From positions 288,001 through 352,000 of the forward strand of contig OY969622.1 in assembly GCA_963701665.1 (NCBI GenBank): DNA of 64,000 nucleotides. The letters run 5' to 3'. This DNA comes from Candidatus Babeliales bacterium. GTDB lineage: Bacteria; Babelota; Babeliae; Babelales; JANWKD01. Every line of letters begins with the position of its first letter. Positions within the stretch are counted from its first letter, which is position 1. Positions 3,840 through 64,000 of the stretch are shown here, one piece after another. The position numbers and the translations under genes were made by a program. The notes beneath the pieces were generated by a model that saw nothing but the letters and a program-made list of their open reading frames with translations, had not been told where the DNA came from and searched no databases.

Positions 3840-3853
3840 TAATGGAGAGTCCG

Positions 3854-4417: not shown

Positions 4418-4427
4418 GGGAAATCTC

Positions 4428-4964
4428 ATGAATTTAAAAAAAATTTTATTTACACTCGCATTCTTATTCTGTTTTTCTAGCGCTGTTCATGGCATGGACC
4501 TCGTTAAAGATATTGTCAAAAACGAGGTTTTGCCTGCTGCAACTATTATTGCAACTGGCGCTGCTTTAGGCGCAGCTTCAAATATCGTGTATAATACAAT
4601 TAATCATTTGACAAGCAATCAAATATATAACTTTAAGAGCCCAACTTTGAAAGAATCAATCTTAAGAGGAGCTGCATTATCCTTACCAATAGTGTTACGG
4701 GCGCGCTTAATGTCCGATGAACCTTACCCTCAAATAAGCCCATTAAAGTTTGCCGTACTTACAGGAGCTTCATGTTCGGCTTTTATAGGTCTTTATGCTA
4801 TACACAATAATTATCATGAAAGAGATTTAGCATTTCAAGGAGATGCTGATTTGATTACTCGTACTGTTCGATCGGATTTAGATATTTTTAAAACACAGGT
4901 ACGTGCAATTCAAGCATTTACAGCAGCAGCGATCTTCTTTGGTTATCCTTGGATGACAAGATAA
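4428..4964 (+). CDS. Hypothetical secreted/membrane protein (tandem trio, member 3)
   Basis: Shares its N-terminus and the ES(L/I)xxGAxLSLPIV segment with 3854..4417. Confidence 0.8.
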   Translation: MNLKKILFTLAFLFCFSSAVHGMDLVKDIVKNEVLPAATIIATGAALGAASNIVYNTINHLTSNQIYNFKSPTLKESILRGAALSLPIVLRARLMSDEPYPQISPLKFAVLTGASCSAFIGLYAIHNNYHERDLAFQGDADLITRTVRSDLDIFKTQVRAIQAFTAAAIFFGYPWMTR

Positions 4965-16580: not shown

Positions 16581-16768
16581 AAAGCACCTAAAAATATGTA
16601 TAGCAACGCATGATTATTAAAGTAAATATAACTATACCGAATTTACGGATTCAATTGAATAGGGCGACGTTTTTATGTTTCTATAATATTGCTATTAAAC
16701 TCATAAACATGCTATTGATAATAGGGCATAAAAACATGAAAAATCATGATGGTATAGAAAGATGCGCT

Positions 16769-18430: not shown

Positions 18431-18535
18431 TTTTTTGCTTGCACGTACTTCGTTATTTTTGCCTTTTGAATCAATCATAGTATTGATAGAGATTAAAAAC
18501 ATGAAAATCATGACTTATAGAAAGATGCAAACACT

Positions 18536-19312
18536 ATGATAACCAATAAACAGACTATTTTTATTGTTTTCATTCTTAATGGGATGTACCTAGGCGCAAT
18601 GGAAAAATGGGGAGAAGATTCGCGTGAAGAGTCTAAACTAGTAACTCGAAGTTTGGATGAACAATTTGCCCATCTACTTGATTATGAAACGTACGATGAT
18701 TTTGAACCAATAATCAAAGTGAGTAACCCTCTACATAATCCAAAATACAAGGATGCGGGAAAAGCATTAGCACATAAGGATAAATTAACCAAAAAGAAAC
18801 TGCTTGAGAATGCGCTTGATTTTCAAGATCAAAGGTACGCTGATCCCAGAGGATATTGTGAGGTATTAAGGCAAATGAAAGCTGAGGAATTACGCATTTG
18901 GTTGGAGCGTGCCTGTTCTTTTGATACTAAAGCTTTAGAGGATTTTAGGCAGGATACGGCAGTCATATTTGTTGCAAGGGTTGTGGATCAAGTGCGCGGA
19001 CCTGAATACATGCAAAATTTTTTTAAGGATGCAGAAAGCGTCGAAAATAATAAAAAAACAAGTGCATACATTGCTAATGCCGTAGAAAAGTATATCAGCC
19101 AAAATATGGTATGGGCATTCACGAATGCTTTTATTAAGAAGCATAAAACAGACCGGACAGAATTACTAAAGCTTTCAAGCTTAATGTTTCTTGAATATTT
19201 TGTGCACAATGATGGGGAGATTAGCAAGGACATTCCATTGTCTTCGCATCAAAAGGATCTTATTTCAGAAATTCGTGGCTTTTGTGCCGATTCAGAAAAT
19301 GGGATTCCGTGA
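18536..19312 (+). CDS. Paralog of the upstream WD40 protein lacking the WD40 domain
   Basis: Shares FQxQRxxDxxGYC...LERxCSxD and the C-terminal KLxSLxFLxxFVHN..ISKDIxLSxHQxDLIS with 16769..18430. Confidence 0.8.
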   Translation: MITNKQTIFIVFILNGMYLGAMEKWGEDSREESKLVTRSLDEQFAHLLDYETYDDFEPIIKVSNPLHNPKYKDAGKALAHKDKLTKKKLLENALDFQDQRYADPRGYCEVLRQMKAEELRIWLERACSFDTKALEDFRQDTAVIFVARVVDQVRGPEYMQNFFKDAESVENNKKTSAYIANAVEKYISQNMVWAFTNAFIKKHKTDRTELLKLSSLMFLEYFVHNDGEISKDIPLSSHQKDLISEIRGFCADSENGIP

Positions 19313-36409: not shown

Positions 36410-36631
36410 TACGAGTTCGATGAGTGACTATGCTGCAGGTAACGCATATTGGAAACAAAATTGTCATTGCGAGCGTAGCGTGGCAATCCAATTATAAAAT
36501 TAGTTCCTTTAAGGAATTAATTAAAGTTTGGATCCCCACGGTTCTGAACCCTGCGAAGCTTCAGCGAAGAAGGGCCAAAGCCTCGGGATGACATCTTTGG
36601 GTTTATTGCCTGCATGTCATTGAGTTAGCGT
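36409..36631 (+). repeat. Nested palindromic element, copy B
   Basis: Outer ends atacgagttcgat / attgagttagcgt; inner tgtcattgcgagc(36462)...cctcgggatgaca(36593); inserted hairpin ccctgcgaagcttcagcgaagaaggg. Confidence 0.85.
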
Positions 36632-36654
36632 TAAATGATAAAAGAAGGAGTGTC

Positions 36655-37041
36655 GTGAAAAAAAAATTACTTGTTATAAATGCATTACGCAAACAATACT
36701 ATAAAGATTGTCACATTCTTGGTTCAATCAACGTATCTTTGGATGACTTAGGTGCCTATGCGCAAAAGCTTGATAAAAACATGCCTATTGTTGTGTATTG
36801 TGCTTCCTATTCGTGTCCTGTGAGCCGCAAAGCATGGCATATTTTGAATGACTTGGGTTTTACCAATGTGCGCGCGTATGAAGGCGGTATGGCCGAGTGG
36901 ACACAAAAGGGATATTTGGCTAAAGGCGCGTGCCAAGAAGAATATTTGAGTCGCCAAGAAAGCTCAGAAACGAGTGATGTGAAAACAATTACTGCTGAAG
37001 CATTAAAGGCTGCAATGGAAGAGGCGGGCTTGTTGCAGTAG
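36655..37041 (+). CDS. Rhodanese-like domain protein
   Basis: HILGSINV, IVVYCAS..C..S, LGFTNVRAYEGGMAEW; AAGGAG RBS. Confidence 0.88.
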   Translation: MKKKLLVINALRKQYYKDCHILGSINVSLDDLGAYAQKLDKNMPIVVYCASYSCPVSRKAWHILNDLGFTNVRAYEGGMAEWTQKGYLAKGACQEEYLSRQESSETSDVKTITAEALKAAMEEAGLLQ

Positions 37042-37070
37042 TCAGTCATAACAGTATACTTACTAATATA

Positions 37071-37314
37071 ACGCAAATTCGATAAATTAAAGTTGGCTGC
37101 GCGAAGATAACATTGAAAACAAATTGTCATTGCGAGCGAATGCGTGGCAACCCAGCTTATAAAAATTAATTCCTTAAGGAGTTATTAAAGTTCGGATTCT
37201 ACTTCGTTAAAACTTCGTAGAACAGGTCCCCCACAAGTCCTTCGAAGCTCGACAGAGCGAAGTAGGAACGGCTGGCGCCTCGGGATGACATTCTTGGGTT
37301 CATCGAATGTGCAT
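37071..37314 (+). repeat. Nested palindromic element, copy C
   Basis: Outer acgcaaattcgat / atcgaatgtgcat; inner tgtcattgcgagc(37125)...cctcgggatgaca(37290); two inserted mini-hairpins. Confidence 0.85.
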
Positions 37315-37994: not shown

Positions 37995-38046
37995 AACATA
38001 GCATTCAGATGCCCACTTTATATATGCTCTTTGTGCAGGGAGTAAA

Positions 38047-38102
38047 GCCCGGTCTTCGCTTGCAATAGAAGATCTTCGAAGCGAAATTGAGCTTCGACGG
38101 GC
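38047..38102. repeat. 56-bp hairpin repeat, copy 1
   Basis: gcccggtcttcgc...gcttcgacgggc; 49/56 identical to 62245-62300 by hand alignment. Confidence 0.8.
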
Positions 38103-38120
38103 GATGAAGGAGTACTAATT

Positions 38121-39724: not shown

Positions 39725-39763
39725 ATGTCTGTAGTATAACGATAAAAAAAGGAGAATATTTGT

Positions 39764-41164
39764 ATGAAGAGGATTATTTTTTTGAGTCTGTGTTTAGCGA
39801 GTAACACATGGGTAAGGGCTGATTTGTCACAGGATTTAACTACATTAACAGCACGATTAGATGTTTTGGCAAATGCCTTAAAACCCAGTATTAAACCAGT
39901 TACAATAAAGCCTGTGATTACTCAACCACTATTGCAAAATGTGCCAATAATTACTGCCCCAAACCTTCCTAGTGAAGTATCAAGTAAGCAATTGGCAGTC
40001 TTGTTGCCTGATACGCAAAGGACATTTCTGGAATTAGCAACTGATATGAATAAATTTATTAGAGTTTTAGGTAATTTCGTTCAATCTACAAAAGGTCAGG
40101 TGAATCCTATTGCAGCGCCTGCTCAAAGGAATCTTGTGCGTCTGCTTAATGATTTAAAAGTGTTACTAGATGAATATAATATGGAAGGAAAAATTTATAC
40201 ATTAAAAAATTTGATAGAAAAAATTAATCAATTGAGATCACAAGCTTCAACTGAAGATGCAAAAGTTGTTTCTAAATTCTTAACAGATATTCTCAATGAA
40301 ATCAATAAGTTTCTCCAATATCTAGATAAGGTTTATGTGGAACATGAGAAGCCATGGGAACGAGTTATTTTTACATTTAACCCTGATGTCAAAGGATACT
40401 CACAGAAAGCATCTGCAACATATCATTTTGATCATGCAGTTATACATCGTGAGGCAATAGACAGATTATTGAATATTGTTGCAGACATTGAACAAATGTT
40501 GCCCTATTGGAAAAATGTTGCTGAAACTAAAGTGCAAGGTGGTGCTCCGTCACCAACAAAACAAAACATAAAGCTTTCTCGGGTAGAAATCTATAGCCCA
40601 AAGAATATAGATGAAGAATTACAAAAGAAAGTTAATGTTGTTCATGCTGCATATGAGATTGTTCAAGGTGATATGTTTAGTGTTGCAGTAGCACTTAATG
40701 ATTTTCTGGGGGAATTAACCGACCCAACAGTGATATCTGCTGCTTTTGAAGATCTCATGCAGCGTTATAGTGATCTTCAAAAAAGGATTCTAACATTCAA
40801 AGATACTTTAGAAAATAATCTTTCATCGGTAGAAGGTCTAAGTGGCAACAGCCGTGTAGAAGTGTATAAATTTCTAAAATCCATCAGAAAAGATTTTAAA
40901 TATTTTGCCAGAGACATAAGCAAGAAAATTGATGATAATGCTCATGAGTTGCAATTACCTTTGTTAACATATAAAGGAAAATCAAATTCTGCATGGCATT
41001 TTGTTCTGAGCTTAATTTATCACTTGGGTCCAAGTAGAATGTTGAAACCTGCCCATCACAGAGTATCTCCTCGTGAGGGTGGTGGTTATCAAAATGAACC
41101 TTGGCCAGACACTTTTGCTGATGAATTCAAAAAGATAATGAAAAGTTGGATGCCAAAACTATAA
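39764..41164 (+). CDS. Secreted helical hypothetical protein (tandem paralog 1)
   Basis: AAGGAG RBS; signal peptide; N-terminal ~260 aa highly similar to the next gene. Confidence 0.8.
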   Translation: MKRIIFLSLCLASNTWVRADLSQDLTTLTARLDVLANALKPSIKPVTIKPVITQPLLQNVPIITAPNLPSEVSSKQLAVLLPDTQRTFLELATDMNKFIRVLGNFVQSTKGQVNPIAAPAQRNLVRLLNDLKVLLDEYNMEGKIYTLKNLIEKINQLRSQASTEDAKVVSKFLTDILNEINKFLQYLDKVYVEHEKPWERVIFTFNPDVKGYSQKASATYHFDHAVIHREAIDRLLNIVADIEQMLPYWKNVAETKVQGGAPSPTKQNIKLSRVEIYSPKNIDEELQKKVNVVHAAYEIVQGDMFSVAVALNDFLGELTDPTVISAAFEDLMQRYSDLQKRILTFKDTLENNLSSVEGLSGNSRVEVYKFLKSIRKDFKYFARDISKKIDDNAHELQLPLLTYKGKSNSAWHFVLSLIYHLGPSRMLKPAHHRVSPREGGGYQNEPWPDTFADEFKKIMKSWMPKL

Positions 41165-41174
41165 TTGCTATTTT

Positions 41175-41207
41175 AAAGGAGCGCGGTGAAGCGCTCCTCT
41201 AACTTTT
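41175..41207 (+). terminator. Terminator, duplicated with the paralog
   Basis: ggagcgc-ggtgaa-gcgctcc followed by ctaactttt; near copy at 42737-42772. Confidence 0.7.
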
Positions 41208-41260
41208 TATTCCTCATAGCTATATATATGATCATGAACGAAAAAAAGGAGAATGATCGC

Positions 41261-42700
41261 ATGAAAAAGATTATTTTTTTGAGTATATGCTTAGTAAGTG
41301 GCACAGTTCTAAAAGCTGATGTGCGACAGGACTTGTCTATATTAGCAATGAGTTTGAATACTTTGGCAGAAACATTGAAGGTGCAGCCTGTTATAAAGCC
41401 TATAATTCCCCCTCAACAACCACCGCAAAAACCACCATTGCAAAATGTGCCAATAATTACTGCTCCAAACCCTCCTGGCCAAGTATCAAGTAAGCAATTG
41501 GCGGTCTTGTTGCCTGATGCGCAAAGGACATTTATGGAATTAGCAACTGATATGAACCAATTTATTAGAATTTTAGGTAGTTTCGTTCAATTTACAAAAG
41601 GTCGGGTGAATCCTATTGCAGAATCTGCTCAACTTAACGATTTAGCTGTGTTGCTTAGTCAAAGATTTATGGGCGACAAAATTTATACGTTAAAAAACTG
41701 GATAGACAAAATTAATCAATTAAGATCACAAGTATCACCTGAAGATGCAAAAATTGTTTTTGCATTTTTAGCGGATATTCTGGATCAAATTGATAACTTT
41801 ATGCGTTATCTAAATGAAGTTTATGATAAATATAAGGCTGAATGGGAACGAGTCACTTTTGTATATAAATATCCTTTCGAAGGGTATGCGCAGAAAGCCC
41901 CTGCAAGTTATCATTTTTATAATACAATTATTCAGGTTGGAGCAATAACCAGATTAGAGAATGTTGTTAAGGATCTTAAACAGATGTTGCCATATTGGGA
42001 AAAGCGAGCTGAAACTAAAAAGCAAGGTGGTGCGCAAATAGCACAGGGAAAATTTACTCCGATAATACCGCCTCCTGCTGAAATTCAAGTAGTACCTTCA
42101 ATTGCTAATTTCGAGGATATTAATTTGGCGTCAATTGGACTTCCTCTGGATCAAGCTGCGGGCGACTTTGAAGGTTATATGCATGCTGTGATTGAAAAAG
42201 TGGAGGAATTTCTGAAGAAAGTTGTGTCATCAGATAAAGATTTACGCATATTTAATGAACTTGTTGCTTTAATTAAAAAATTCCAAGATGTTTCTAAAAG
42301 ATTGAACGATGAATTAATTGATTTTAATAAACAGTCAAATCAGTTTACTCAAGAGGATGCCAAGATTGTTGTTAAATTCTTAAAAGGTATACAGACAAAT
42401 ATGAATAATTTTAATCAATGGATTACAGCAGCTGACCAAAGAAATTTTTCTAATTTACAAAACATTAGGTTTATATATAAAAGTCTTGTGATGACACCAA
42501 ATGCTCCAGCTGGTGATAAATTTATAGAATTTGTTGTAACACCTATTAGTCAAATAATGCAAAGAGGTACTGAGCCTAATTTGGCAAATGTGTTAAATGA
42601 TTCTATCTTGGATTGGGAGGAGAAAGTTAATCCTTCTACTTCGCCAATAGGTGGAAAAGGTCCAGGGTATGAAAAGGTGGAATCTTGGATTAACACATAA
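41261..42700 (+). CDS. Secreted helical hypothetical protein (tandem paralog 2)
   Basis: AAGGAG RBS before ATG 41261; shares PLQNVPIITAPN...KQLAVLLPD.QRTF.ELATDMN...QMLPYW with 39764..41164. Confidence 0.8.
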   Translation: MKKIIFLSICLVSGTVLKADVRQDLSILAMSLNTLAETLKVQPVIKPIIPPQQPPQKPPLQNVPIITAPNPPGQVSSKQLAVLLPDAQRTFMELATDMNQFIRILGSFVQFTKGRVNPIAESAQLNDLAVLLSQRFMGDKIYTLKNWIDKINQLRSQVSPEDAKIVFAFLADILDQIDNFMRYLNEVYDKYKAEWERVTFVYKYPFEGYAQKAPASYHFYNTIIQVGAITRLENVVKDLKQMLPYWEKRAETKKQGGAQIAQGKFTPIIPPPAEIQVVPSIANFEDINLASIGLPLDQAAGDFEGYMHAVIEKVEEFLKKVVSSDKDLRIFNELVALIKKFQDVSKRLNDELIDFNKQSNQFTQEDAKIVVKFLKGIQTNMNNFNQWITAADQRNFSNLQNIRFIYKSLVMTPNAPAGDKFIEFVVTPISQIMQRGTEPNLANVLNDSILDWEEKVNPSTSPIGGKGPGYEKVESWINT

Positions 42701-45715: not shown

Positions 45716-45958
45716 ATGCGGATTCGATATAAATTGTGCAATCAGCAAGAATGTCTTCCCGAGGCTTTAGCCGTGGGGATCCAGAACTTTAATAAATTCC
45801 TTAAAGGATTAATTTTATAATTGGATTCTACTTCGTTAAAACTTCGTAGAACAGGTTGCCAGCTCCTTCGAAGCTCGTAGAGCGAAGTAGGATCGCAATG
45901 ACAATTTTGTTTTCAATGTTGCCTTTGCGTAGCCAAATTCAATGTATCGAATTTGCAT
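45716..45958 (-). repeat. Nested palindromic element, copy D (reverse orientation)
   Basis: Outer atgcggattcgat / atcgaatttgcat; inner tgtcttcccgagg(45752)...cgcaatgaca(45903); same two mini-hairpins as copy C. Confidence 0.85.
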
Positions 45959-46527
45959 TATTCATCTTTATATCTGCACGATTGGCAGGTGATGAATTCC
46001 CATGCAATTTTTTTCAATTCACGTAATTCCGGTGCCGTAGACCAATAGTCGGGATCTGCGTGTAATTGAGTTTCGAGAAAGTTAATCAAAGGGGATACTT
46101 TATTGCCTATTTCTCGATTTTTTATGCGGTATGCTTTGTAGGCAATGGTAAGGGGTGTTTCATGATGATCATTAACATCGTTAACTTCAAGACCATTCTC
46201 ATATACTAAGGTGCGTAAAAGTGGTTTGTATCTTTCAATAAGATTATCAAAACTGGAAGCATGTTTTTGAGCTACTAAGTTTTCCACTATGCAATGAATA
46301 AGACCGTTATGAGGTCCATAATGATAGGATCTTAATGTTTTTGCTGGAAGCTTATCTAATTCTCTTTTGATTGATTTAGGATGGAAAATATGGTGTTGAA
46401 TGAAATCTTCGAGTGCCACATCAGATGGTAATGATTCGGATGGTTCTGCTATTTGTACTTGTTCCTGTTCCATGCATTGCGATGTTATAACTATAAAGCT
46501 TGCCAAAATTGATGTAATGATTTTCAC
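45958..46527 (-). CDS. Secreted hypothetical protein with ankyrin-like segment
   Basis: GTG start after AAGGAA; signal peptide SQC-MEQ; GLEVNDVNDHHETPLTIA. Confidence 0.65.
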   Translation of the reverse strand: MKIITSILASFIVITSQCMEQEQVQIAEPSESLPSDVALEDFIQHHIFHPKSIKRELDKLPAKTLRSYHYGPHNGLIHCIVENLVAQKHASSFDNLIERYKPLLRTLVYENGLEVNDVNDHHETPLTIAYKAYRIKNREIGNKVSPLINFLETQLHADPDYWSTAPELRELKKIAWEFITCQSCRYKDE

Positions 46528-49248: not shown

Positions 49249-49383
49249 AGGTTAATATCAACTCGTGACATTTTGTCACGAGTTCGATCTTTTTTTATTA
49301 ATCAAAATCTTACGTACTATGTATTATTTGTACGTTGTTACATTGTGCAGCAGAAATAATATTGGAAACAAAATTGTCATTGC

Positions 49384-50561
49384 TGTATGTGTTCAGAGTT
49401 TCGGTGAATAATTTTTGGCACAAAGAGACAAGCAGAGTTAAATTGAAAATTTTTTAATTCCCTTAAACGGGTGTGCTCGATTCCTTCAACAAAGCTGATG
49501 GAATTTTACCATCCAAACCTTGATGGGGCCGATGTTCATTATGATAGAAATTATAGCCAAGAACAGCATCTTTTAGTTCATCAATTGTGTTAAATATAGA
49601 TCCTTCAATAACTTCATCATCAAAAGAACGCCAAAATCTCTCAATTTTTCCATTTGTTTGAGGCTTATAAGGGAGGGTTCTTCGGTGCTTAATAGCAAAA
49701 TGAAGTAGCAATCTTTCAAAAGGATGATTTTTTAATCTTTCTGGACCTGAACAAAATTCAGCACCATTATCAGTTAAAGCTTCATCAAATGTGATACCGT
49801 ATCGTTGGTTCATATGCAAAATGATATCCATCATAGCAAAAGTCACATCTATTGCTTTGAGAGATTCAATTACTTCAACCCAAACTATTCTAGAGAAGTC
49901 ATCAATAACTCCCAGCACAAAATATTTCTTTTTAGGTTCAGATTGCACAATTTCTTTAGGTAAGTAATGGCAATCTATATGGGCTAATGACCCTGCGAAT
50001 GTTCTCACGATCTTTCTTTTTTCCTCTTGTACTCGTTTAGTTAACTTAGAAACGCCATATTTTCGTAATGTTCGATATACTGAACTTGCAGAACAACCCT
50101 TTTTAATCAAGGGATTTTTTTTGAGGGCTGCGGCAATAACATACCTATTTAAACCTGATTTCCGATACTCTAAAATTTGTTTTACAAGACTATCATCTGC
50201 AAGCGGCATTTCTTCAAACTTAGGCTTGGGACCGCGTCTTATAGGCAACAAAAGTTCGGGAATTTCCTGAGCAGCTTTGTAGCGTCTGTAAAGCTTATAA
50301 AAATTCTGAAAACAGAGTTCTCTGGCTTCAAAAAATTCTCGAACACGCTTAAATTGAGGGTGTTTTTTTGACTTAACAAGTTCGTATTCTTCCACATATT
50401 TTAGCATATATTTAATTGAATTGCTTGCTAAAGTACGATACGATGTATTTATACCCATAAAAGGAACTCCTGTTAAAATTGTTAATATTTGCATATTTAA
50501 TTCTAACTCTGATTTCCCTTTGTGGGTATCTTTTTATTCACCGAAATTATGAACTTCTACA
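49384..50561 (-). mobile_element. IS481-family insertion sequence (1178 bp)
   Basis: TGT...ACA termini; 28-bp IRs tgtatgtgttcagagtttcggtgaataa / tgtagaagttcataatttcggtgaataa (23/28); flanking direct repeat ATTGC. Confidence 0.9.
49463..50458 (-). CDS. DDE (rve) transposase, IS481 family
   Basis: HIDC, VIDDFSR, LTDNGAEF, YKPQTNGKIERFWR, HNEHRPHQGL; single ORF; GGAG RBS before Met at 50458. Confidence 0.92.
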   Translation of the reverse strand: MGINTSYRTLASNSIKYMLKYVEEYELVKSKKHPQFKRVREFFEARELCFQNFYKLYRRYKAAQEIPELLLPIRRGPKPKFEEMPLADDSLVKQILEYRKSGLNRYVIAAALKKNPLIKKGCSASSVYRTLRKYGVSKLTKRVQEEKRKIVRTFAGSLAHIDCHYLPKEIVQSEPKKKYFVLGVIDDFSRIVWVEVIESLKAIDVTFAMMDIILHMNQRYGITFDEALTDNGAEFCSGPERLKNHPFERLLLHFAIKHRRTLPYKPQTNGKIERFWRSFDDEVIEGSIFNTIDELKDAVLGYNFYHNEHRPHQGLDGKIPSALLKESSTPV

Positions 50562-50751
50562 ATTGCGAGCGCAAGCGTGGCAATCCAATTATAAAATTAG
50601 TTCCTTTAAGGAATTAATTAAAGTTTGGATCCCCACGGCTAACGCCTCGGGATGACATGCCGGTATTCATTGCGCTAATTAGAAGTTACAACTTCAGTCC
50701 GTGACAAAATGTCACGACCTCACTTGCCTCTGAAATTAAGCGATGCTTGTA

Positions 50752-55409: not shown

Positions 55410-56366
55410 TCATTTCTTATTAAATACATCAGACATTATTTTATTTGCTGCTGTAATGATTGCTCGTATGGCAGGAGCTTGTGTAATAGCATTTATTAAA
55501 AGACAATCATGAATCACGCCAAGCGTACGGAATGCTGCAACAGGAACGCCTGCTTGCATAAGTTTGCGCGCGTACGCTTCACCTTCATCACGTAACACGT
55601 CATTTTCATTAACAAAAATTAACGCGGGTGGTAACTTTTTAAGTTGGTCAAATGAAGCTTGCAATGGCGAGGCTAAATGTTTTTTTCTATCTGCTTTGTT
55701 CGGAACGTACGCATCCCAAAACCATTCCATGGCAGGTTTTGTAAGCCAAGGCCCATCGGCAAATTGTTTATAGGAAGGTGTATTAAAATTTGCATCGGTT
55801 GTCGGATAAAAAAGAACTTGCATTTTGAATTGTGGTCCGCCGCGTTCTTGTGCCATCATTGCTATTGCCGTTGCCATAAGGCCACCAACACTGTCGCCAG
55901 CAATTATCATACGCGAACTATCAATATTAAGTTCCTTACTCTGTTCTTTAGCCCATTGAGCAGCAGCATATCCTTGCTCGTGCGCTACCGGATATTGGCC
56001 TTCTGGCGCAGGCGTATAATCTACGAATACCACCACAGCTTGGGTGCCATGGGCAATTTCACGGACTAATCGATCATGCGTGTTTTTATTACCCAGTACC
56101 CAACCGCCGCCGTGTATATAAATAATGACGGGCAAAGCTTGTGTTGCGCCTTTCGGACGTACGATACGTAGGTTAATAGGTCCATGTGGTCCCGTGATTG
56201 TACGATCTTCACTTTCGGTGTTCTTTGTGTCAACAGGTCCTTTTTGCAAATCATCAAGAAGTTTACGTGCATCTGCATACGAAAGTTTGTATAAAGGTTT
56301 GCCACCTTGTTTGGCAAGTGCATCTAAAAATTTTTGGATAATTGGATCTAAAATTAAGGTACTCAT
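55410..56366 (-). CDS. Alpha/beta hydrolase, hormone-sensitive lipase/esterase family
   Basis: HGGGWVLG, GDSVGG, ENDVLRDEGEAYA, GVIHD. Confidence 0.92.
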   Translation of the reverse strand: MSTLILDPIIQKFLDALAKQGGKPLYKLSYADARKLLDDLQKGPVDTKNTESEDRTITGPHGPINLRIVRPKGATQALPVIIYIHGGGWVLGNKNTHDRLVREIAHGTQAVVVFVDYTPAPEGQYPVAHEQGYAAAQWAKEQSKELNIDSSRMIIAGDSVGGLMATAIAMMAQERGGPQFKMQVLFYPTTDANFNTPSYKQFADGPWLTKPAMEWFWDAYVPNKADRKKHLASPLQASFDQLKKLPPALIFVNENDVLRDEGEAYARKLMQAGVPVAAFRTLGVIHDCLLINAITQAPAIRAIITAANKIMSDVFNKK

Positions 56367-56503
56367 AGTATTCACAAAACCTTCACAATAAGTTATCGAA
56401 TATTTTACTTATTTGGCACTATAGAAAAAAGATATATTGAAATGCAAGAACGTAATTTTCCAGATTATGAACAGGGTATGATAAAAAAAGAAGTAGATGC
56501 TTT

Positions 56504-57049
56504 ATGAAAAAAGTTTTACGAGTATTTACCGTTGGACACTCAACCAGATCGATAGAAGATTTTTTAGAGCTACTCAAACATTACACTATTAATGAACTTG
56601 TTGATATTCGCACAATCCCAAAATCACGGCATAATCCACAATTTAGTGGTGAAGAATTAGCACATGTTTTGAGAAATCATCATATTGGTTATCGTCATCA
56701 AAAAAATTTGGGCGGCTTGCGGCATGCTCATGCTGATTCGATTAACACGGCTTGGCATAATGCTTCATTTCGCGGATTTGCAGATTATATGCAAACGGAA
56801 GAATTTAAGGATGGCATAAAAGAGCTTATTGAAATTGCACATAAAAAAACGGTAGTAATTATGTGCGCCGAGGCTGTTCCTTGGCGATGCCATCGATCTT
56901 TGATTGGCGATGCTTTGTTAGTGCAAGGAGTGGATGTTGAAGATATTTATAGCATAACATCAAGTAAGCCTCATACATTGACCCCTTGGGCTAAAGTGCA
57001 GGGCACAACAGTCACATACCCCGCAACGGAGGATATATCTAATGGCTAA
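56504..57049 (+). CDS. DUF488 family protein
   Basis: FTVGHSTR, VDIRTIPKSR, LGGLR, FRGFADYM, MCAEAVPWRCHRSLI. Confidence 0.9.
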   Translation: MKKVLRVFTVGHSTRSIEDFLELLKHYTINELVDIRTIPKSRHNPQFSGEELAHVLRNHHIGYRHQKNLGGLRHAHADSINTAWHNASFRGFADYMQTEEFKDGIKELIEIAHKKTVVIMCAEAVPWRCHRSLIGDALLVQGVDVEDIYSITSSKPHTLTPWAKVQGTTVTYPATEDISNG

Positions 57050-57128
57050 AAATTTTAAAGTTGGCGATCTTGTAGAATGGAATTCCCCAAGCGAGGAGAG
57101 TACAATGTTACAAAAATTATTTTTGTGA
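57042..57128 (+). pseudogene. Truncated DUF2945-like gene fragment
   Basis: GGAGG RBS; MAKNFKVGDLVEWNS matches DUF2945 N-termini, then the frame ends after 28 aa. Confidence 0.55.
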
Positions 57129-57785
57129 TGTTGAAGTTAGATTTTGCCTAAAATTTACGAGTACTTTTTTTCTTGCGGTGTACCAGGTATTTGATGGTTT
57201 TAAGTGCCTTATATCTTCGACACAGCCCTTGGAATAAGGGCATCCTTCTTCTTGCATATGTTCTTGATAGGATGGACTTTTTAGATAAAAACCAATGCTA
57301 GGCACGGGCATGGTAGGTTTCTCTAGTATTTCTTCAGCCCAAGGTAGTTGTTCTAGGCGTATTTTATTAAATTCTTCTGATTGTGCTACTACGCACTTTA
57401 TTGCATGGAAAAAAGGTTTAAATTCTAAGTAATGTATTATTCTATGGATTATTATTTTTGGATCATCATAACATACAGCATCCTGAAATGTTCTAATGTA
57501 ATGTCGTGCAAACCATTCAACAGCAGTTTTAAAGTACTCATTCTTTTCAGTAGAATCGGGTTGCGGAATGAGATCTCCGTTAGTATCTAAATAGCCGCCC
57601 TGTTTTAGATGTGCCACTATAACATGCTCTATATCTTCTATATGCCCATTGTTTGCAAGTACCAAATATGCAGGCAAAATTTCGTGGCTTTCATTTTTTG
57701 TATAATACTCTTCCATTGATAGTGCAGGAAGAAAACTAAAGAATAAAATGAGTGATAGAATTTGAGAACGTGCATGTTGTATCAT
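57117..57785 (-). CDS. Secreted hypothetical protein
   Basis: TAAGGA RBS; signal peptide ending ALS-MEE. Confidence 0.7.
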   Translation of the reverse strand: MIQHARSQILSLILFFSFLPALSMEEYYTKNESHEILPAYLVLANNGHIEDIEHVIVAHLKQGGYLDTNGDLIPQPDSTEKNEYFKTAVEWFARHYIRTFQDAVCYDDPKIIIHRIIHYLEFKPFFHAIKCVVAQSEEFNKIRLEQLPWAEEILEKPTMPVPSIGFYLKSPSYQEHMQEEGCPYSKGCVEDIRHLKPSNTWYTARKKVLVNFRQNLTSTSQK

Positions 57786-58083
57786 ACTATTCCTTATTTA
57801 AAAATATATTTTGAACAAGAATGTACGGCTTTTACCGGAGCAAGTCAACTTTAGCGACTCGCCAAAATAGTTAGGATGACGAGAATAATGCTAAATGCAT
57901 CATGCCTTTAAAATTACTTGATTCGTTACCATACTTATAGTACGGTAACGAAAAAATAACAAAAACGTAACAAGCCTAAAGGAGTCGCATGTAAAAAAGA
58001 AAGCGAGTGCTCGGAGAATTTGACGTATCGACCATGTTTGGTTGGCGTTGAGCGTAATGATTAAAAAAATAAAAGGAAGTTTT

Positions 58084-59427
58084 ATGTTTATGAAGAAATC
58101 TTTTAGCAAGGCCCCAGCATTGACAACGTTATCGTTGCTATCTGTGTTGGCAATGCCATTTTATGTATATGCAAATGGCTATGAAGTTCAAGCAGAATTC
58201 ACCGGAACACCAACTTTAACCAGTCCTCCGCCTAATGCTGATGAGTTCGGCGTGACTGTTGCTATACCAAATGACGAGCTGGTTGTTGTAGGAGCACCCG
58301 GAGCTACGCCAGATGGACTACCGCAAGCTGGAGCTGTTTATTTTTTTGACAGGGACGGAAACACATGGTCACCTTCTCAGACGCCGTATACAAATCCTAA
58401 TGCAGGTAATCTTGTAGCCGATGTTGTTATTGCCGCGCGGGACCAATGGTTATTTGTACCTGCCAATGGAACGCCCTTAAATCAACCAAATCCTCAGCTG
58501 AAAGATTATTCGGGTGCGATTTTAGTCTTCCAACTTAACGAAGAAAACAATGAATATCAACTCGTTCAAACAATATTCAATCCTGATGGAACGATTGATG
58601 ACAGCTTCTTTGGTTTTAACTTAAGCTATAACGGCGGAGACTGGATGGTCGCAGGAGGCGTCAATGTCTCTAAAGCCTATTTTTTCAAGCTGAACAGTTG
58701 GACAAACCAATGGGAATTTAAACAATCAGTGTCAGTAATAGGTAATACTATGACAACGGGATACGTATTCCCATGCATCTTTGGTACACATGCCTTAATC
58801 TCACAAGTAATTCCTTCAATTCCGAACGCCCAATCTAATGGCGCTGTATTTGCTTATGAACTCGATGGCACTCAATGGAATTATACCCAAACGCTCGCTG
58901 GAATAGATACTGAATTTTCAATAACATATACCTGTTATGACGCTTATGGTGAGTTCATCGCTATCAGTGGTTACAATGCTATGGTGAGTGCGCCTCAAGA
59001 TACAGATACTGCTCCGGGGAGTCACCAGGTAGCTGGAGCTGTATACTTTTATAGTTTACATAATGGACAGTGGCAGCTCAATGCCAAAGTGTTATCGGAT
59101 CAGCCTAGCACTCTGTTTGGATTTGGTTTAGCTATCGATGGCGACACTGCTGTCATTGGAGATTGCGGTCGAAAGGTGAATCACAATATCTATCAAGGAG
59201 CACTTAAAGTGTACCAAAAACAAGGGAATACATGGATACCATCATCATTGCTTATTGATCCGAATGGAAGAGCTTATGATTTCTTTGGCGGTGGCGGCGT
59301 TGACATTAACGCTGGCTACATAATGGGTGGAGACGATACATTTTCTACTACCTATTTCCCAGCGACTTTCCCCGGCAAAAATAATAACCCATTCAATAAT
59401 GGAAGAGCTGTATTATACAGTAACTAA
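58084..59427 (+). CDS. Secreted FG-GAP/integrin-alpha-like beta-propeller protein
   Basis: FGVTVAI...VVGAPG...AGAVYFF repeats; FGFGLAIDGDTAVIG. Confidence 0.82.
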   Translation: MFMKKSFSKAPALTTLSLLSVLAMPFYVYANGYEVQAEFTGTPTLTSPPPNADEFGVTVAIPNDELVVVGAPGATPDGLPQAGAVYFFDRDGNTWSPSQTPYTNPNAGNLVADVVIAARDQWLFVPANGTPLNQPNPQLKDYSGAILVFQLNEENNEYQLVQTIFNPDGTIDDSFFGFNLSYNGGDWMVAGGVNVSKAYFFKLNSWTNQWEFKQSVSVIGNTMTTGYVFPCIFGTHALISQVIPSIPNAQSNGAVFAYELDGTQWNYTQTLAGIDTEFSITYTCYDAYGEFIAISGYNAMVSAPQDTDTAPGSHQVAGAVYFYSLHNGQWQLNAKVLSDQPSTLFGFGLAIDGDTAVIGDCGRKVNHNIYQGALKVYQKQGNTWIPSSLLIDPNGRAYDFFGGGGVDINAGYIMGGDDTFSTTYFPATFPGKNNNPFNNGRAVLYSN

Positions 59428-59458
59428 AAACATCATTGGATGTAATGTATAATTAACT

Positions 59459-59506
59459 TCAGAGAGGTCTTTTGTAGTGAAATAATTCCTATAGAGGCCT
59501 CTCTGA
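59459..59506. terminator. Hairpin downstream of the FG-GAP gene
   Basis: tcagagaggtctt...gaggcctctctga. Confidence 0.55.
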
Positions 59507-59541
59507 CACTTTTAAGTTAAAATCAGGCCCGATCGGATATT

Positions 59542-59591
59542 GATTTCAGGTTACAACACATCTAGACGGTGTTTCGATCGTTTAATATCAC
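59542..59591 (+). repeat. att-like direct repeat, copy 1 (partial)
   Basis: gatttcaggttacaacacatctagacggtgtttcgatcgtttaatatcac matches the cores of 61802-61885 and 62821-62904. Confidence 0.8.
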
Positions 59592-59675
59592 TGGGTATAC
59601 CCGGTTGACAGACCCTATCTTTTCCTATATTATTAATTCTAATAGAATATTTACTTAATTAAGGGGCGCTTTGGG

Positions 59676-61802
59676 ATGACAATGATGCGTATTGTGTGTT
59701 TTTTTTCTTTCCTATTCTGTTTTGCTGTTCAATCAGTGGGGGCAATGGAATTAAGCTCATTGAAAGAATTTACTGATGAAGAAATAACTATTTTCATTAA
59801 GGACAATCTTCAAGAAATTCCTCGATTAGTTGGGTTATTATTAAATCAAGAAAAGCTATTCGATTTATATGATCATTTTGTTTGTGAGCAGATAGGAAAA
59901 GATGAATATATAAGAGAATTGAAAAATATTGATGCAGCTCTTTTACACATAAGCAAAACAGTACTTCATTGTCCTGAACGATTAAAAGTATTTATAAATC
60001 CAATAACCCAATATATACATCTACTTAAAAATCAAAAAAATCCCTTGAGCTTAGAACAAAAAATAAGCATTATTAAAAATCTTCGTGATAAATACGTGCA
60101 GATCAAAAATAGGTGTACAGTACTCATAGCGCAAATGAATAATGCCTATAGGCGCACCAGTTGCTTAGAAATAGCTAGTACTGATGAAAAAGATAACCCA
60201 AAAAAAAATCGACACTTAATTTCAAAACAGGAATTAGGGTTTATGGATTCATCTTTGGACTCTCATTTTTGCACTTTTATGCACAATATTTGCAGGACAC
60301 TCGAAATCCAAGGATATCTTGCCGAAGTAATTGTATTTGTTCATCAATCACTCAAAGAACTTGATCACAGACTTACTATATATAGAGAAACATTGTCGCA
60401 GAGTAATGTTTTAGAAAAAAATGAGAATGTTGGAAATATTCCTAATGCACGGCCCGGTGAATATGCCTATATAATAAAAAAACCTAAATCTCTTGAAGCT
60501 TGTTATGTTGCATATATTATTGGTGGTCTTTCAAAAGATCCTGCTGCCTTCGATAAGCTTGGTGGGATTGCCTTATCATTAATTAATCATCAAAACGAAG
60601 AAATAAGGGATTATGCAAAATTAGCATTAGCAAAAAGTAACTTTGATCGAGCCTTAGATCACTATATAAAATTAGTTAAAATTTTCTTAAAAATTTACGA
60701 CCAAGATCCAATAATGAAATACTTCGAAACAGCTTATCAAGTGAATGCTCTCAATAATCCATCAATATCTTTCCTACCTTGTTCCCTTTTTCGTTTTATG
60801 CATCTTTTAAATCAAGCAAATAACAATCTTAATGAAGTTCGAGAATATTCTGAAAAATTAACTGTTATCAACGGCTTACTCGGTTATACAGAAGAGTTTC
60901 TTAATGAATATAAGGCAAACCAAAAAACATATGCTACCAATTATAAAAGATTAAAAGACACTTTAAGAAGTTTGATGCCTAAATGTCCTACATCGCAACT
61001 GTATACTATGACTCGGTACTTAAATGAGAGTTCTTTGGAGCCATATTGTTTGGAGACTGTTCTTAAAGGTAATTTCTTAAGCGATGAAGAAATTCAAATA
61101 ATCTTAAGGATGCGAAAAAATAAGCCCACAAGCACGACAGAAGATGTGGCGGCAAATGTTGTTGATGTGAGAACAGTACCGGAAAAAAAACAAAAAAATA
61201 TAAAAAAAGTTCAGCCTAAAAAGAAAAAAAGAAGTAGAAGAAAAAATCAGGGAAAAAACAAAAAAAGAGAAGAAGCATCGGAAAAAGAAAATCCTGAAAC
61301 AAAATCTCTCGATCAAAAACAAACAAATTCACAAAAAATTCGTCTTGCGGATAAGAAAATTGCAAAAAAAATTGTTGATAGTGAAAATAATATGACACTA
61401 TCTGTATGTTGCATGAAAGATCCTGATCCTGCAGCAGGTAAACTTATAATTTACGATGATCGTGTTCAACAATGGTTCACAGATCCCCAGAAAGCACTTG
61501 CTCAAAAAGGATTTGCTGAACATGATCCACGCAGAGATACTTCTATTCCGTTCCACAGCTTTGCAAAAGACATTGACAAATACGCTCTAAAATGGGGATT
61601 CAAAAGAGCAGGCCAAAATAATCATGGAAAACATGTAACAGAAATATATTTGCCAGGCTTTATTGAAAAAGATGGAACCTTCTTCGAGGGACTTTTCGTT
61701 TACGTCATAGATGTAAAAATGCTTTGTTATCACAGATTTTTTACTATTTGTGATTGGCATCAAAAACTTGCTGATGAATGGCAAGTAGATTTTGAAGAAT
61801 AA
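59676..61802 (+). CDS. Large secreted hypothetical protein with NLS-like basic region
   Basis: Signal peptide ending VGA-MEL; PKKKKRSRRK; 708 aa. Confidence 0.75.
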   Translation: MTMMRIVCFFSFLFCFAVQSVGAMELSSLKEFTDEEITIFIKDNLQEIPRLVGLLLNQEKLFDLYDHFVCEQIGKDEYIRELKNIDAALLHISKTVLHCPERLKVFINPITQYIHLLKNQKNPLSLEQKISIIKNLRDKYVQIKNRCTVLIAQMNNAYRRTSCLEIASTDEKDNPKKNRHLISKQELGFMDSSLDSHFCTFMHNICRTLEIQGYLAEVIVFVHQSLKELDHRLTIYRETLSQSNVLEKNENVGNIPNARPGEYAYIIKKPKSLEACYVAYIIGGLSKDPAAFDKLGGIALSLINHQNEEIRDYAKLALAKSNFDRALDHYIKLVKIFLKIYDQDPIMKYFETAYQVNALNNPSISFLPCSLFRFMHLLNQANNNLNEVREYSEKLTVINGLLGYTEEFLNEYKANQKTYATNYKRLKDTLRSLMPKCPTSQLYTMTRYLNESSLEPYCLETVLKGNFLSDEEIQIILRMRKNKPTSTTEDVAANVVDVRTVPEKKQKNIKKVQPKKKKRSRRKNQGKNKKREEASEKENPETKSLDQKQTNSQKIRLADKKIAKKIVDSENNMTLSVCCMKDPDPAAGKLIIYDDRVQQWFTDPQKALAQKGFAEHDPRRDTSIPFHSFAKDIDKYALKWGFKRAGQNNHGKHVTEIYLPGFIEKDGTFFEGLFVYVIDVKMLCYHRFFTICDWHQKLADEWQVDFEE

Positions 61803-61885
61803 ATATTGTGACAACTGCTTTCACGTTACAGCACTTCCAGATGGTATTTCGATCATTTAATATCGCTCTAAAGGAATACTAAAAA
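61802..61885 (+). repeat. att-like direct repeat, copy 2
   Basis: 71/84 identical to 62821-62904 by hand alignment. Confidence 0.85.
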
Positions 61886-61897
61886 TGTTTTGAGCTT

Positions 61898-62206
61898 TTA
61901 ACTTGCTGGTTTTAAATGAAAAGCAAATACCGCAAGAAAAAAACCAATTATTGAAATTATTTTAAATAATTTTTGATTCATTTTTTCTGCAGGAGAAATC
62001 CCACCGTATGTTTGAATTTCCCAGCCTTTTTGACCTAAAACTGATGTTGCTATTGGGATAATACTAAAAGATTGGAACCCTTGGATAAAGCTCTTAGAAA
62101 AAAAATGAAAAGTGTTTATCCAAATTGCCAAGCAATGAATGAAACATATCAGTATAAATGATATAATAGCTGCTTTACAATATGACTTTATGACATTTTG
62201 AATCAT
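61898..62206 (-). CDS. Hypothetical membrane protein
   Basis: AAGGT RBS; hydrophobic segments; LGQKGWEIQTYGG.SPAE. Confidence 0.65.
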   Translation of the reverse strand: MIQNVIKSYCKAAIISFILICFIHCLAIWINTFHFFSKSFIQGFQSFSIIPIATSVLGQKGWEIQTYGGISPAEKMNQKLFKIISIIGFFLAVFAFHLKPAS

Positions 62207-62244
62207 AATAATAACCTTAAAACATTAAAAGACTGGCCGTGCCA

Positions 62245-62300
62245 GCCCAGTCTTCGCTTGCAATGGAATGCCTTCGAAGTGAAACTGAGCTTCGACGGGC
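62245..62300. repeat. 56-bp hairpin repeat, copy 2
   Basis: 49/56 identical to 38047-38102. Confidence 0.8.
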
Positions 62301-62391
62301 AATCTACGCCATCATTCCGTTAAAGGAACTGGCGAAGCCAATCGTAGCCAAATTACACATCGAAGTTTTTCCCCATGCAGGCGTAGAATTA

Positions 62392-62634
62392 TTATAGCAG
62401 TCTTTTCTTTCTAAATTCCCTACCCGATCCAGATTTTAGAAATTCTTCAAATGCATATGCTTTTAATTTATCTTGAAATGCTGCATAAAAAAACAATTTC
62501 CAAGGTAAATATTTTGCGGTATGTGGTGTTGTCCCAGCATTATGATTAGAAAGTCTTTTTTCTAAATCCTCAGTACAACCAACATATATCTGATTAGGGA
62601 GATTTATGGATTGGATAATATAAACGTAATGCAT
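62392..62634 (-). CDS. Stand-alone GIY-YIG nuclease
   Basis: YVYIIQS...IYVGCTEDLEKRLSNHNAG...T.KY.PW...E..LKSGSGR. Confidence 0.92.
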   Translation of the reverse strand: MHYVYIIQSINLPNQIYVGCTEDLEKRLSNHNAGTTPHTAKYLPWKLFFYAAFQDKLKAYAFEEFLKSGSGREFRKKRLL

Positions 62635-62820
62635 CTGGTGAGTCCAAAGAAAATAAAATTTATTAAATGTTGGCCTGCCGGTCCTCCTGCGCCAAGGCTC
62701 CGGCGGACAGCCTACGTTTTCACTTTTCTCTTAGTATCAATTTCATTTAAAAAGATGGCCGCGCCAGCCGGAGTTCGGAAGAACGTAGGCTGGTGTCACA
62801 TAGTGGATGTATTCAGGAAC

Positions 62821-62904
62821 AATATTTTGACCATAGATTTTACGTTACAGCACATCCAGACGGTGTTTCGATCATTTAATATCGCCCTAGAAGAATGCTA
62901 AAAA
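62821..62904 (+). repeat. att-like direct repeat, copy 3 (follows TGG...WCHIVDVFRN, a recombinase-tail-like frame)
   Basis: See copies 1 and 2; in frame reads NILTIDFTLQHIQTVFRSFNIALEEC*. Confidence 0.85.
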
Positions 62905-62953
62905 ACGCCTCCTGGTTATTGGAAGATTAATGTTTATTTTTTTAAAAAGATTG

Positions 62954-64000
62954 TTAAAAAAGAGTTACAAGAAGAGTTTTTATGAATAACTCCTGTGCCA
63001 AAGGTTTTGTTTGTTTGTTATATTTTTCAAAACTTAATGAATTTGTATCAAAATTTTTTACAAATTCTGACAGTGCTTTAAGTGAAAGGAATGGAATAGT
63101 AAGAGCTGCTCCAGTGAGAGGATGAGGACTTGTTCTGGCATCACCCCAAAGAATAATTGGCCTTCCTTGATAGGAAATAGCTCCTTCTGTGGCAAGTGCT
63201 GGAATAAAATTGACAAAGGAAATAACATCAGTCGCATCAGAAAATGGTATGGATGTGGGTTGATTTTTTTTTGTAGCATAAAGATACCAGTAAATTGCTG
63301 GATTATTTGGCACTAATGAGAATTTTGTGTCATTGGGTTTAATTGCTGCTAATCTTTTTATTTGTGATTGTACTCCGTTGCCAACCAAAGAGACTTTAAA
63401 ACCCCAATTAACGTTTTCTCCTGATATTCGTTCTTTCTTTAATCCCGGTAAAAGTTTAGTTTCTGATTCATATCGCAATGCAGCAACTCCATGAGTTGTG
63501 TATTCAGGAAAATTTTTAAAGTTAAATTTCTTTATAAATTTAGGATTTTTCTGCTTTGCTAAAGTATTTGCTCCAGTTGATAGAATGATTACTTGCGCAT
63601 CATCTTGAATTTCTTTTAATTGCGTTTTTTTTCCATAAAGAATATCTACTTGATGCTTTTGACAGATATGAGCAAGGGCATTTTGAAAGTCACCTATAGC
63701 GATTCGATAGGAACGAAGCTTAGTAGGATTATCTAGTTCCATTTCAAATTGAATAAGTTGTTGTTCTTTTAAAAATAGATCAAGCTCTGGGAATTCATTT
63801 TGAATGAACTGAGGAACATTAATGGAAACATTTTGCCAGCGTCGATCAAATTCTTCCTTTGTTCGCTTTTCGTGTACACAAACCCTGTGACCATCTCGAG
63901 CTAATGCAAGTGCTGCTATAAGACCACTTGGTCCAGCTCCTAAAATAGCTACCTTCTTTGAATCACAAGATGCAATATCATTATCGTTAGGATATTCGTA
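62954..64000 (-). CDS. FAD-dependent oxidoreductase/monooxygenase, N-terminus beyond the window
   Basis: Frame open to 64000: VAILGAGPSGLIAALALARDGHRVCVHEKR; IILSTGAN; WGDARTSPHPLTG. Confidence 0.8.
   Translation of the reverse strand, partial: YEYPNDNDIASCDSKKVAILGAGPSGLIAALALARDGHRVCVHEKRTKEEFDRRWQNVSINVPQFIQNEFPELDLFLKEQQLIQFEMELDNPTKLRSYRIAIGDFQNALAHICQKHQVDILYGKKTQLKEIQDDAQVIILSTGANTLAKQKNPKFIKKFNFKNFPEYTTHGVAALRYESETKLLPGLKKERISGENVNWGFKVSLVGNGVQSQIKRLAAIKPNDTKFSLVPNNPAIYWYLYATKKNQPTSIPFSDATDVISFVNFIPALATEGAISYQGRPIILWGDARTSPHPLTGAALTIPFLSLKALSEFVKNFDTNSLSFEKYNKQTKPLAQELFIKTLLVTLF

Follow-up and report, generated by a model that had tools for sequence, protein, structure and literature searches.

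In the ssrA islands of Dehalococcoides, the 3' end of the gene for the large serine recombinase (LSR) DsiB extends over the attachment site, and the reading frame continues antisense to the stable-RNA gene; the passages of PMC3146451 that we draw on also describe these islands as tandem, with islands lacking the integration module fixed by accretion, and their authors propose that the enzyme perhaps attains full function only on the circle, or once it is linked to the 3' fragment of the next island. An LSR occurs in 27 of 937 tycheposons of Prochlorococcus, according to the sections used here of the preprint describing them (bioRxiv 10.1101/2020.12.28.424599), and the part cited of the 2014 Islander account states that no serine integrases with tRNA genes as targets were known (PMC4383910). 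Here we analyse a 64,000-nucleotide stretch of DNA (the window) from a Candidatus Babeliales bacterium, corresponding to positions 288001-352000 of C1, the single contig of the 1.34-Mb genome G000, in which one short sequence recurs in three copies. We conclude that this array consists of tandem serine-integrase islands at the tip of a tRNA gene, with one intact member and two likely relics, and is not an integron. Specifically, we read the repeat as the displaced C-terminal tail of an LSR, the gene of which runs into the 3' tip of tRNA-Arg(TCT). Copy 3 then marks the far junction of the 7.6-kb island carrying that gene, and copies 1 and 2 are likely the eroded ends of earlier islands of the same family that were stacked there. 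We put the probability of this reading at roughly 0.8.

The copies, and the elements of the third that matter for integration, are as follows (window coordinates).

59539..59592, + strand: copy 1, an eroded internal piece of the LSR tail (tail codons about 15-32) with one TAG and without the crossover site
61802..61885, + strand: copy 2, the LSR tail minus its first 31 bases (crossover site and inner arm), with an open frame
62791..62901, + strand: copy 3, a complete displaced LSR tail of 36 codons plus stop, forming the left end of the 7.6-kb island
62791..62796, + strand: the 6-bp core TGGTGT, common to the junction of LSR and tRNA-Arg at genome C1:358382-358387
62795-62796: the predicted crossover dinucleotide, the last two paired bases of the acceptor stem

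A preliminary description of the window had reported three copies in one orientation, with copies 2 and 3 identical at 71 of 84 positions, an open frame in both, a TAG in copy 1 and a start of copy 2 at the stop codon of a 708-aa gene. All of this was reproduced, with the three copies on the + strand and copy 2 beginning on the last base of that gene's TAA, although the true start of copy 3, at 62791, lies upstream of the one given there. Copy 1 is 88% identical to copy 3 across 51 bases (59539-59589). When copy 3 was searched against the genome, copy 2 was found at E = 1e-20 and copy 1 at E = 1.5e-12, as against a best value of 0.37 for the reversed genome. A look for further copies to the right of the window had been suggested; the genome search with the repeat found none there, and a fourth copy lies instead at C1:704196-704110, next to ftsW. 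An Rfam scan of 56000-64000 gave three chance-level matches, far under the gathering scores, and a known RNA was therefore rejected as the identity of the repeat.

The window itself contains no recombinase gene, but one lies a short distance beyond it, in the following setting.

C1:356879-358396, + strand: LSR gene, 4.9 kb right of the window (Pfam and PHROG matches)
C1:358382-358458, - strand: the target tRNA-Arg(TCT), intact
62954..64000 of the window, continuing to genome position 352159, - strand: 401-aa FAD-dependent oxidoreductase, the first gene inside the intact island
C1:353136-354245, + strand: replication protein (PHROG 702, E = 5e-5)

The LSR combines Resolvase (E = 3e-20), Recombinase (E = 3e-12) and zinc-ribbon (E = 2e-6) Pfam domains in one protein and matches the PHROG 95 integrase at E = 6e-68, and the column equivalent to Ser10 is invariant among 57 aligned sequences. 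The 3' tip of tRNA-Arg(TCT), read in antisense, supplies the last codons of the LSR gene. TGGTGT occurs at genome positions 350791 and 358382, in direct orientation and 7591 bp apart, and a scripted join of the two island ends produced a single open frame of 537 aa. Because the core is common to copy 3 and the LSR junction, and because the joined ends give one frame, we take copy 3 to be the far end of the 7.6-kb island. The predicted empty site holds an intact tRNA-Arg(TCT) whose CCA is followed directly by a GC-rich palindrome. Within the island the gene order is FAD oxidoreductase, replication protein, Fic, HigBA-like pair, 330-aa protein and LSR; on one contig of run X1 the tail occurs jointly with the FAD and replication genes, with an identity of about 93%. 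The CRI-like look-alikes of the replication protein are a lead only. No second serine recombinase was found in the island, and no directionality factor turned up, no search aimed at one having been made.

This design is not confined to tRNA-Arg(TCT), since it holds for both of the other full-length LSR islands of the genome. One of these, at tRNA-Glu, spans 4.3 kb (C1:224435-228788), and the other, at tRNA-Arg(CCT), spans 13 kb (C1:646248-659366) and contains genes that by eye resemble primases and helicases. Each has a displaced tail at its far end, and palindromes lie on the outer arm of both.

The resemblance to an LSR 3' tail, which the preliminary description had proposed, was borne out both by the 537-aa join and by natural LSRs that end in the tail. 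It had also suggested looking for a serine recombinase with this ending, and the C-terminus of P0119, a natural LSR of 516 aa, is homologous to the tail (38% across 34 residues, E = 6e-8). Among the 120 homologs listed and inspected by eye, it is the one with this ending; six end in other tails, and most stop 3-4 residues past a conserved Trp or continue in tRNA antisense. A profile of 13 tails matched 166 proteins at E <= 0.001, and among the 150 of these that were listed, LSR sequence is present in 28, while in 139 the tail lies at most 10 residues from the C-terminus; the tail pattern is conserved across distant genomes. Additionally, a profile made from six other tails and applied to 51 metagenome loci recovered 11 tails scoring over 20 bits, each on the same strand as the LSR, three matches near 10 bits being left out. 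Fifteen loci combined 6 kb or more of upstream sequence with an identity of 46% or higher, and 10 of them had a tail.

The match to the A118 integrase ends at residue 466 of 488, so the tail swap removes an extension and not the known fold. Folding of P0119 from its single sequence gave a pLDDT of 39.5; with a 57-row alignment the mean rose to 76.5, the tail (490-516) staying below 50, with two helices suggested at that low confidence. Two LSR homologs, P0072 (723 aa) and P0116 (696 aa), carry long extensions, the latter with two extra Pfam families, and these may be read-through or fusion artefacts.

The position of the exchange was mapped by comparing 16 pairs of island junctions. In all 16 the block shared by the two ends covers core positions 2-5, its letters varying with the target tRNA; in 11 pairs position 5 is also its exact end. 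The strongest inverted symmetry falls on positions 4-5, where it averages 9.4 of 25 compared with 4.8-7.6 elsewhere; the signal is weak at any single site (10 of 25 here). Together, the limits of the block and the symmetry place the predicted crossover on the final two paired positions of the acceptor stem. Selection of the pairs relied on a profile that favours a leading Trp codon, so that positions 0-2 are partly built in, whereas positions 3-5 are not.

The copies were also compared at synonymous and non-synonymous sites. Copy 1 differs from copy 3 at 4 of 10.5 synonymous and 2 of 37.5 non-synonymous sites (p = 0.013), and copy 2 at 6 of 16.7 and 7 of 61.3 (p = 0.030). Copy 4 likewise has a synonymous excess against copy 3 (p = 0.058), and the three comparisons pooled give a Fisher p of 1.5e-4. 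As the differences are mostly synonymous, we conclude that copies 1, 2 and 4 diverged from copy 3 as coding tails and not as dead duplicates.

We then compared the locus with its counterparts in relatives, searching the tail DNA against 261 genomes of the order (E <= 0.01, at most three candidates scored per genome). Matches were obtained in 22, many of them weak, with strong ones in three of the four other genomes of the family. In the window the three tails are co-oriented and point to the 3' end of the tRNA, which lies intact at one end of the array, and two to four layers are present at tRNA-Arg(TCT) in G001, G003, G004 and G059. G001 has four tails in two orientations together with LSR remnants; G003 has two complete junctions and a replication-gene remnant; G004 has two layers, the inner with an LSR of another clade; and G059 has two tails. 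The cargo between tails differs in every one of these relatives, which makes a simple local duplication unlikely; the preliminary description had named identical gene order across the repeats as the mark of such a duplication, and that order was not seen. In G001, moreover, the 3' remnant of an LSR continues in frame into a tail that is truncated at the very base at which copy 2 is; deletion of the junction between two stacked islands should produce just such an intermediate. At two further loci (L083 and L086) an LSR is joined to the tail of another island, with its own tail upstream. Separately, in G022 a 147-aa internally deleted LSR that keeps both gene ends overlaps tRNA-Arg(TCT) (L074, C1:507089-507532); it is possibly a non-autonomous relic.

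The material between the copies, and the insertion that holds copy 4, comprise the following.

59676..61802, + strand: 708-aa protein with a hydrophobic N-terminus and a lysine-rich stretch, no family match
61898..62206, - strand: 102-aa predicted membrane protein, island-end cargo facing copy 2
C1:702557-704216: 1.66-kb insertion with copy 4 between ftsW and ligD (L002)

Neither the 708-aa nor the 102-aa protein has a match in Pfam, PHROGs or NCBIfam, and an Atlas search gave no usable match for the former. The preliminary description called the 708-aa protein secreted and NLS-bearing; with a hydrophobic N-terminus and a lysine-rich stretch as their basis, both labels are putative. In 260 other genomes of the order the protein has a single full-length homolog (51% identity, in G082), 22 kb from an LSR at tRNA-Asp, and its gene is likely cargo stranded from an older island. 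We considered whether the C-terminus of the 708-aa protein derives from the tail that its stop codon touches and rejected this, since the G082 homolog ends identically with no tail behind it; the end of the gene is thus native. Homologs of the 102-aa protein occur in four of the 260 genomes. The one in G003 (55% identity) faces a complete junction, and copy 2 plus the gene match that unit at 74% DNA identity over 294 bases. The G183 homolog also faces a tail and the G059 homolog lies inside an LSR island, while the one in G081 has no tail nearby. Directly to the left of copy 1, a 461-aa predicted secreted protein with FG-GAP repeats is encoded at 58042-59427. No homolog of it was found in the fetched stretches of G001, G003 and G004, so it possibly represents a still older layer. 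Copy 1 is likely the oldest scar.

Copy 4 begins 20 bases past ftsW, and the insertion also holds an M48 peptidase and a toxin-antitoxin pair of ParE-like type. In G001 and G003 ftsW directly neighbours ligD, a different insertion occupies that ftsW site in G004, and a homolog of the M48 peptidase adjoins a tail at tRNA-Arg in G004. The match of copy 4 to copy 3 starts at core position 5, a hint of integration at a secondary site; the core itself differs, however, and no LSR end, replication-gene remnant or other island end was found near copy 4.

Between copies 2 and 3 lies a second kind of element.

62232..62387, - strand: palindromic repeat of the tRNA-3'-end family, with near-identical copies directly after many tRNA genes
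62392..62634, - strand: gene of an 80-aa GIY-YIG nuclease (PF01541, E = 4e-16), part of a separate tRNA-end element
62673..62790, no strand assigned: GC-rich palindromes, the chromosomal arm of the island's left junction

Although the GIY-YIG and FAD-binding domains assigned in the preliminary description were both confirmed, its view of the nuclease gene as cassette cargo was not upheld, homologs following tRNA 3' ends elsewhere in the genome: paralogs stand behind tRNA-Arg(TCG) and tRNA-Asp and also flank the tRNA-Glu island. The palindromic repeat starts right after CCA in 20 of the 36 tRNA genes, sometimes ahead of a GIY-YIG gene, and a further palindrome of this type lies in the window at 38046-38105. 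Outside each complete junction seen in G001, G003, G004 and G059 lies a separate palindrome, so that a new one would be needed at the tRNA end after each island. Related palindromes interrupt five tails in G001 and G003 at one site, which resembles the ACCA end of a tRNA on the other strand. Such palindrome/GIY-YIG elements may contribute to the stranding of older islands.

These results suggest a model in which the attachment site of the free circle would lie within the recombinase gene, 36 codons ahead of the stop, as the in-frame join predicts. With the site so placed, a tail would arrive with each island. Exchange at the predicted dinucleotide of the acceptor stem would rebuild the tRNA, the conserved Trp codon of the enzyme supplying CCA on the other strand, and integration would carry the tail to the opposite end of the island, where, as at the LSR end, the junction is observed. 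An island arriving later at that tRNA end would displace its predecessor outward, and the recombinase and adjoining junction of the displaced island would then probably be lost by deletion. Such a deletion might halt at useful cargo and leave a tail without a core, as at copy 2. Palindrome/GIY-YIG elements between layers could assist in stranding older islands, by way of an intermediate that we have not seen. A more elaborate possibility, which we regard as doubtful, is a two-element ratchet at the tRNA ends of Dependentiae: loss of the 36-residue tail would serve as the on/off switch of a self-truncating island, a palindrome/GIY-YIG element landing behind CCA would trap that island and offer a fresh site, and repeated cycles would fix secreted, effector-like cargo, with the tails as their sole record.

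Several observations weigh against our reading of the array. Copies 1 and 2 lack the core, the crossover site being kept only in copy 3, and neither an LSR end nor a replication-gene remnant was found between copies 1 and 3; for these reasons we infer, and do not observe, the origin of copies 1 and 2 as junctions. Among 10 other tails copy 2 is nearest to copy 3 (83%), the tails of relatives reaching at most 80%. The search for circular junctions proposed in the preliminary description found neither an excised circle nor an empty-site joint in run X1, the single run that contains part of the region (contigs only, share 0.07). Homologs of the FAD oxidoreductase lie outside intact islands in G001 (80%) and G004 (60%), and it may therefore be a captured local gene. 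No tail was present in the fetched stretches of G022 and G035, nor in either stretch of G081, that at tRNA-Glu included, and no locus was found in which a palindrome separates an intact LSR end from its tRNA. Finally, tails in G001 and G082 point the wrong way. In G082 this is likely the result of an inversion, the tail being flanked by inverted 1.6-kb duplicates of an ankyrin gene that are 96.6% identical (L141/L150, C1:610520-620760).

The preliminary description had interpreted the repeats as att scars of repeated integration at a recombinase 3' end, forming an integron-like array. Repeated site-specific integration is indeed most likely, with the tip of tRNA-Arg(TCT) as its target in place of a recombinase 3' end. 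The integron-like part fared worse. It would require units without an LSR, running from a tRNA-end palindrome to an LSR tail, to be moved by a resident LSR in trans or by homologous recombination between palindromes. Layer 2 here and the first layer of G003 (tRNA, palindrome, cargo, 102-aa homolog, tail) do lack an LSR remnant, each complete junction in the four relatives does have a palindrome of its own, and the copy 4 unit, inserted between genes adjacent elsewhere and matching copy 3 from core position 5, could be such a unit. However, copies 1 and 2 have no crossover site, palindromes stand behind 20 of the 36 tRNAs in any case, and other outer layers keep LSR remnants (G001) or a replication-gene remnant (G003), which is what islands that decayed as a whole should contain. 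Moreover, neither of the attC cores RYYYAAC and GTTRRRY, which are mutual reverse complements, was found on the + strand in the three stretches around the copies, and PF00589 matches only at genome positions 729909 and 808919, so that the two tyrosine recombinases are more than 370 kb away and no IntI adjoins the array. Recombination of an attL-type site with attB is not a normal reaction of serine integrases, which also counts against this alternative. We consider it improbable.

Local duplication or gene conversion, in which one island tail was copied nearby during rearrangements at the tRNA and separate integrations were not involved, would explain the closeness of copy 2 to copy 3, and it gains from the rearrangement of the region in relatives and from copy 4, which shows that a tail can end far from any tRNA. 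It accounts poorly for the synonymous excess of copies 1, 2 and 4, for the agreement of copy 2 and the 102-aa gene with the complete G003 junction unit, and for gene content that changes from relative to relative, and we judge it very improbable. Alternatively, the tail might be kept and multiplied for an independent function, exerted either through a small peptide that targets the recombinase or through a DNA or RNA signal located where the upstream gene ends. The conservation of its pattern and the synonymous excess would fit this, as would truncated tails that begin at the stop codon of a co-oriented gene (copy 2, and also in G001) and a 96-codon frame with a TTG start that spans copy 3. 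Yet coding constraint is expected anyway from the time spent in circular form, copy 1 contains a stop, copy 2 has no start codon of its own, palindrome insertions break tails in G001 and G003, and Rfam gave no match of note; there is very little chance that this is the explanation. Tandem islands at the tRNA tip thus remain our preferred account, with one refinement. The Islander description of tandem islands has each member carry its own integrase and target fragment; here only the innermost layer has them, copies 1 and 2 lacking both, and we accordingly regard the outer layers as relics and not as intact tandem members.

Elsewhere in the window there is a 343-aa transposase with an rve domain (49463-50494) and a second family of dispersed palindromic repeats (36446-37303, 45746-45961, 49359-49383 and 50574-50670), of which a 65-bp pair of copies, at 36477 and 50574, is identical. 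Tandemly repeated genes or gene parts at 39744-42419, 3321-4579 and 16767-19304 have spacings of about 1.5 kb, 0.57 kb and 0.9 kb, respectively, and 71-91% DNA identity.

The array offers a mappable route by which these intracellular parasites of protists may gain lineage-specific secreted proteins, with the recombinase tail as a marker of old integration events. Since only 6 bp of the tRNA are repeated, programs that find islands by tRNA fragments would likely miss these. Furthermore, because the sites can be predicted precisely at many tRNA isotypes, the question left open for DsiB, whether the swap of C-termini controls direction or activity, becomes testable. Titles and abstract openings retrieved in our literature search contained no account of serine integrases at tRNA tips in Dependentiae and nothing on GIY-YIG/palindrome elements at tRNA ends. 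The word 'tRNA' does not occur in the main text of the Durrant preprint, and the passages seen of PMC12884075 and PMC12424338 are silent on whether serine integrases target tRNAs.

In its domain order (resolvase, recombinase, zinc ribbon, coiled coil), short core and predicted 2-bp crossover, the enzyme resembles the integrases of the phages A118/LI and TP901-1 and CcrAB of SCCmec. It is set apart from the latter by the CcrA/B/C equivalog models, which score it at 35-73 bits against cut-offs of 700-900, and by the target, rlmH for SCCmec and a tRNA here. In the split integrases of Myxococcus phage Mx8 and Sulfolobus SSV1, which are tyrosine recombinases, the attachment site is likewise said to lie inside the gene, integration at a tRNA reportedly altering the C-terminus with more of the protein lost. 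With integrons the array shares unrelated cargo between copies of a recombination-related sequence, sometimes right at a stop codon, but the repeat here is coding sequence of a serine recombinase and the units appear to arrive as whole islands. As in the tandem tRNA islands of Islander (PMC4383910) and in tycheposons, to judge from the parts of those accounts cited, new elements push older ones away from the tRNA and remnants mark the older events; those arrays differ in that partial tRNA copies about 40 nt long mark them and their integrases are mostly of the tyrosine type. A close likeness in the passages used is to the DsiB islands, with their overlap of integrase gene and attachment site at a stable-RNA gene, their tandem accretion and their module-less islands. 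The logic of the array, tandem accretion at a stable-RNA gene, was already known, and the stacked tail scars are the addition made here. The same passages give DsiB an ssrA target, a 20-bp direct repeat and a six-gene module with DsiA (DsiA/ParB/Mom). In contrast, the islands described here use the tip of a tRNA acceptor stem, a 6-bp core, one LSR and a CRI-like replication gene, at many tRNA isotypes across the family, and the scar that they leave in view is the enzyme's own tail.

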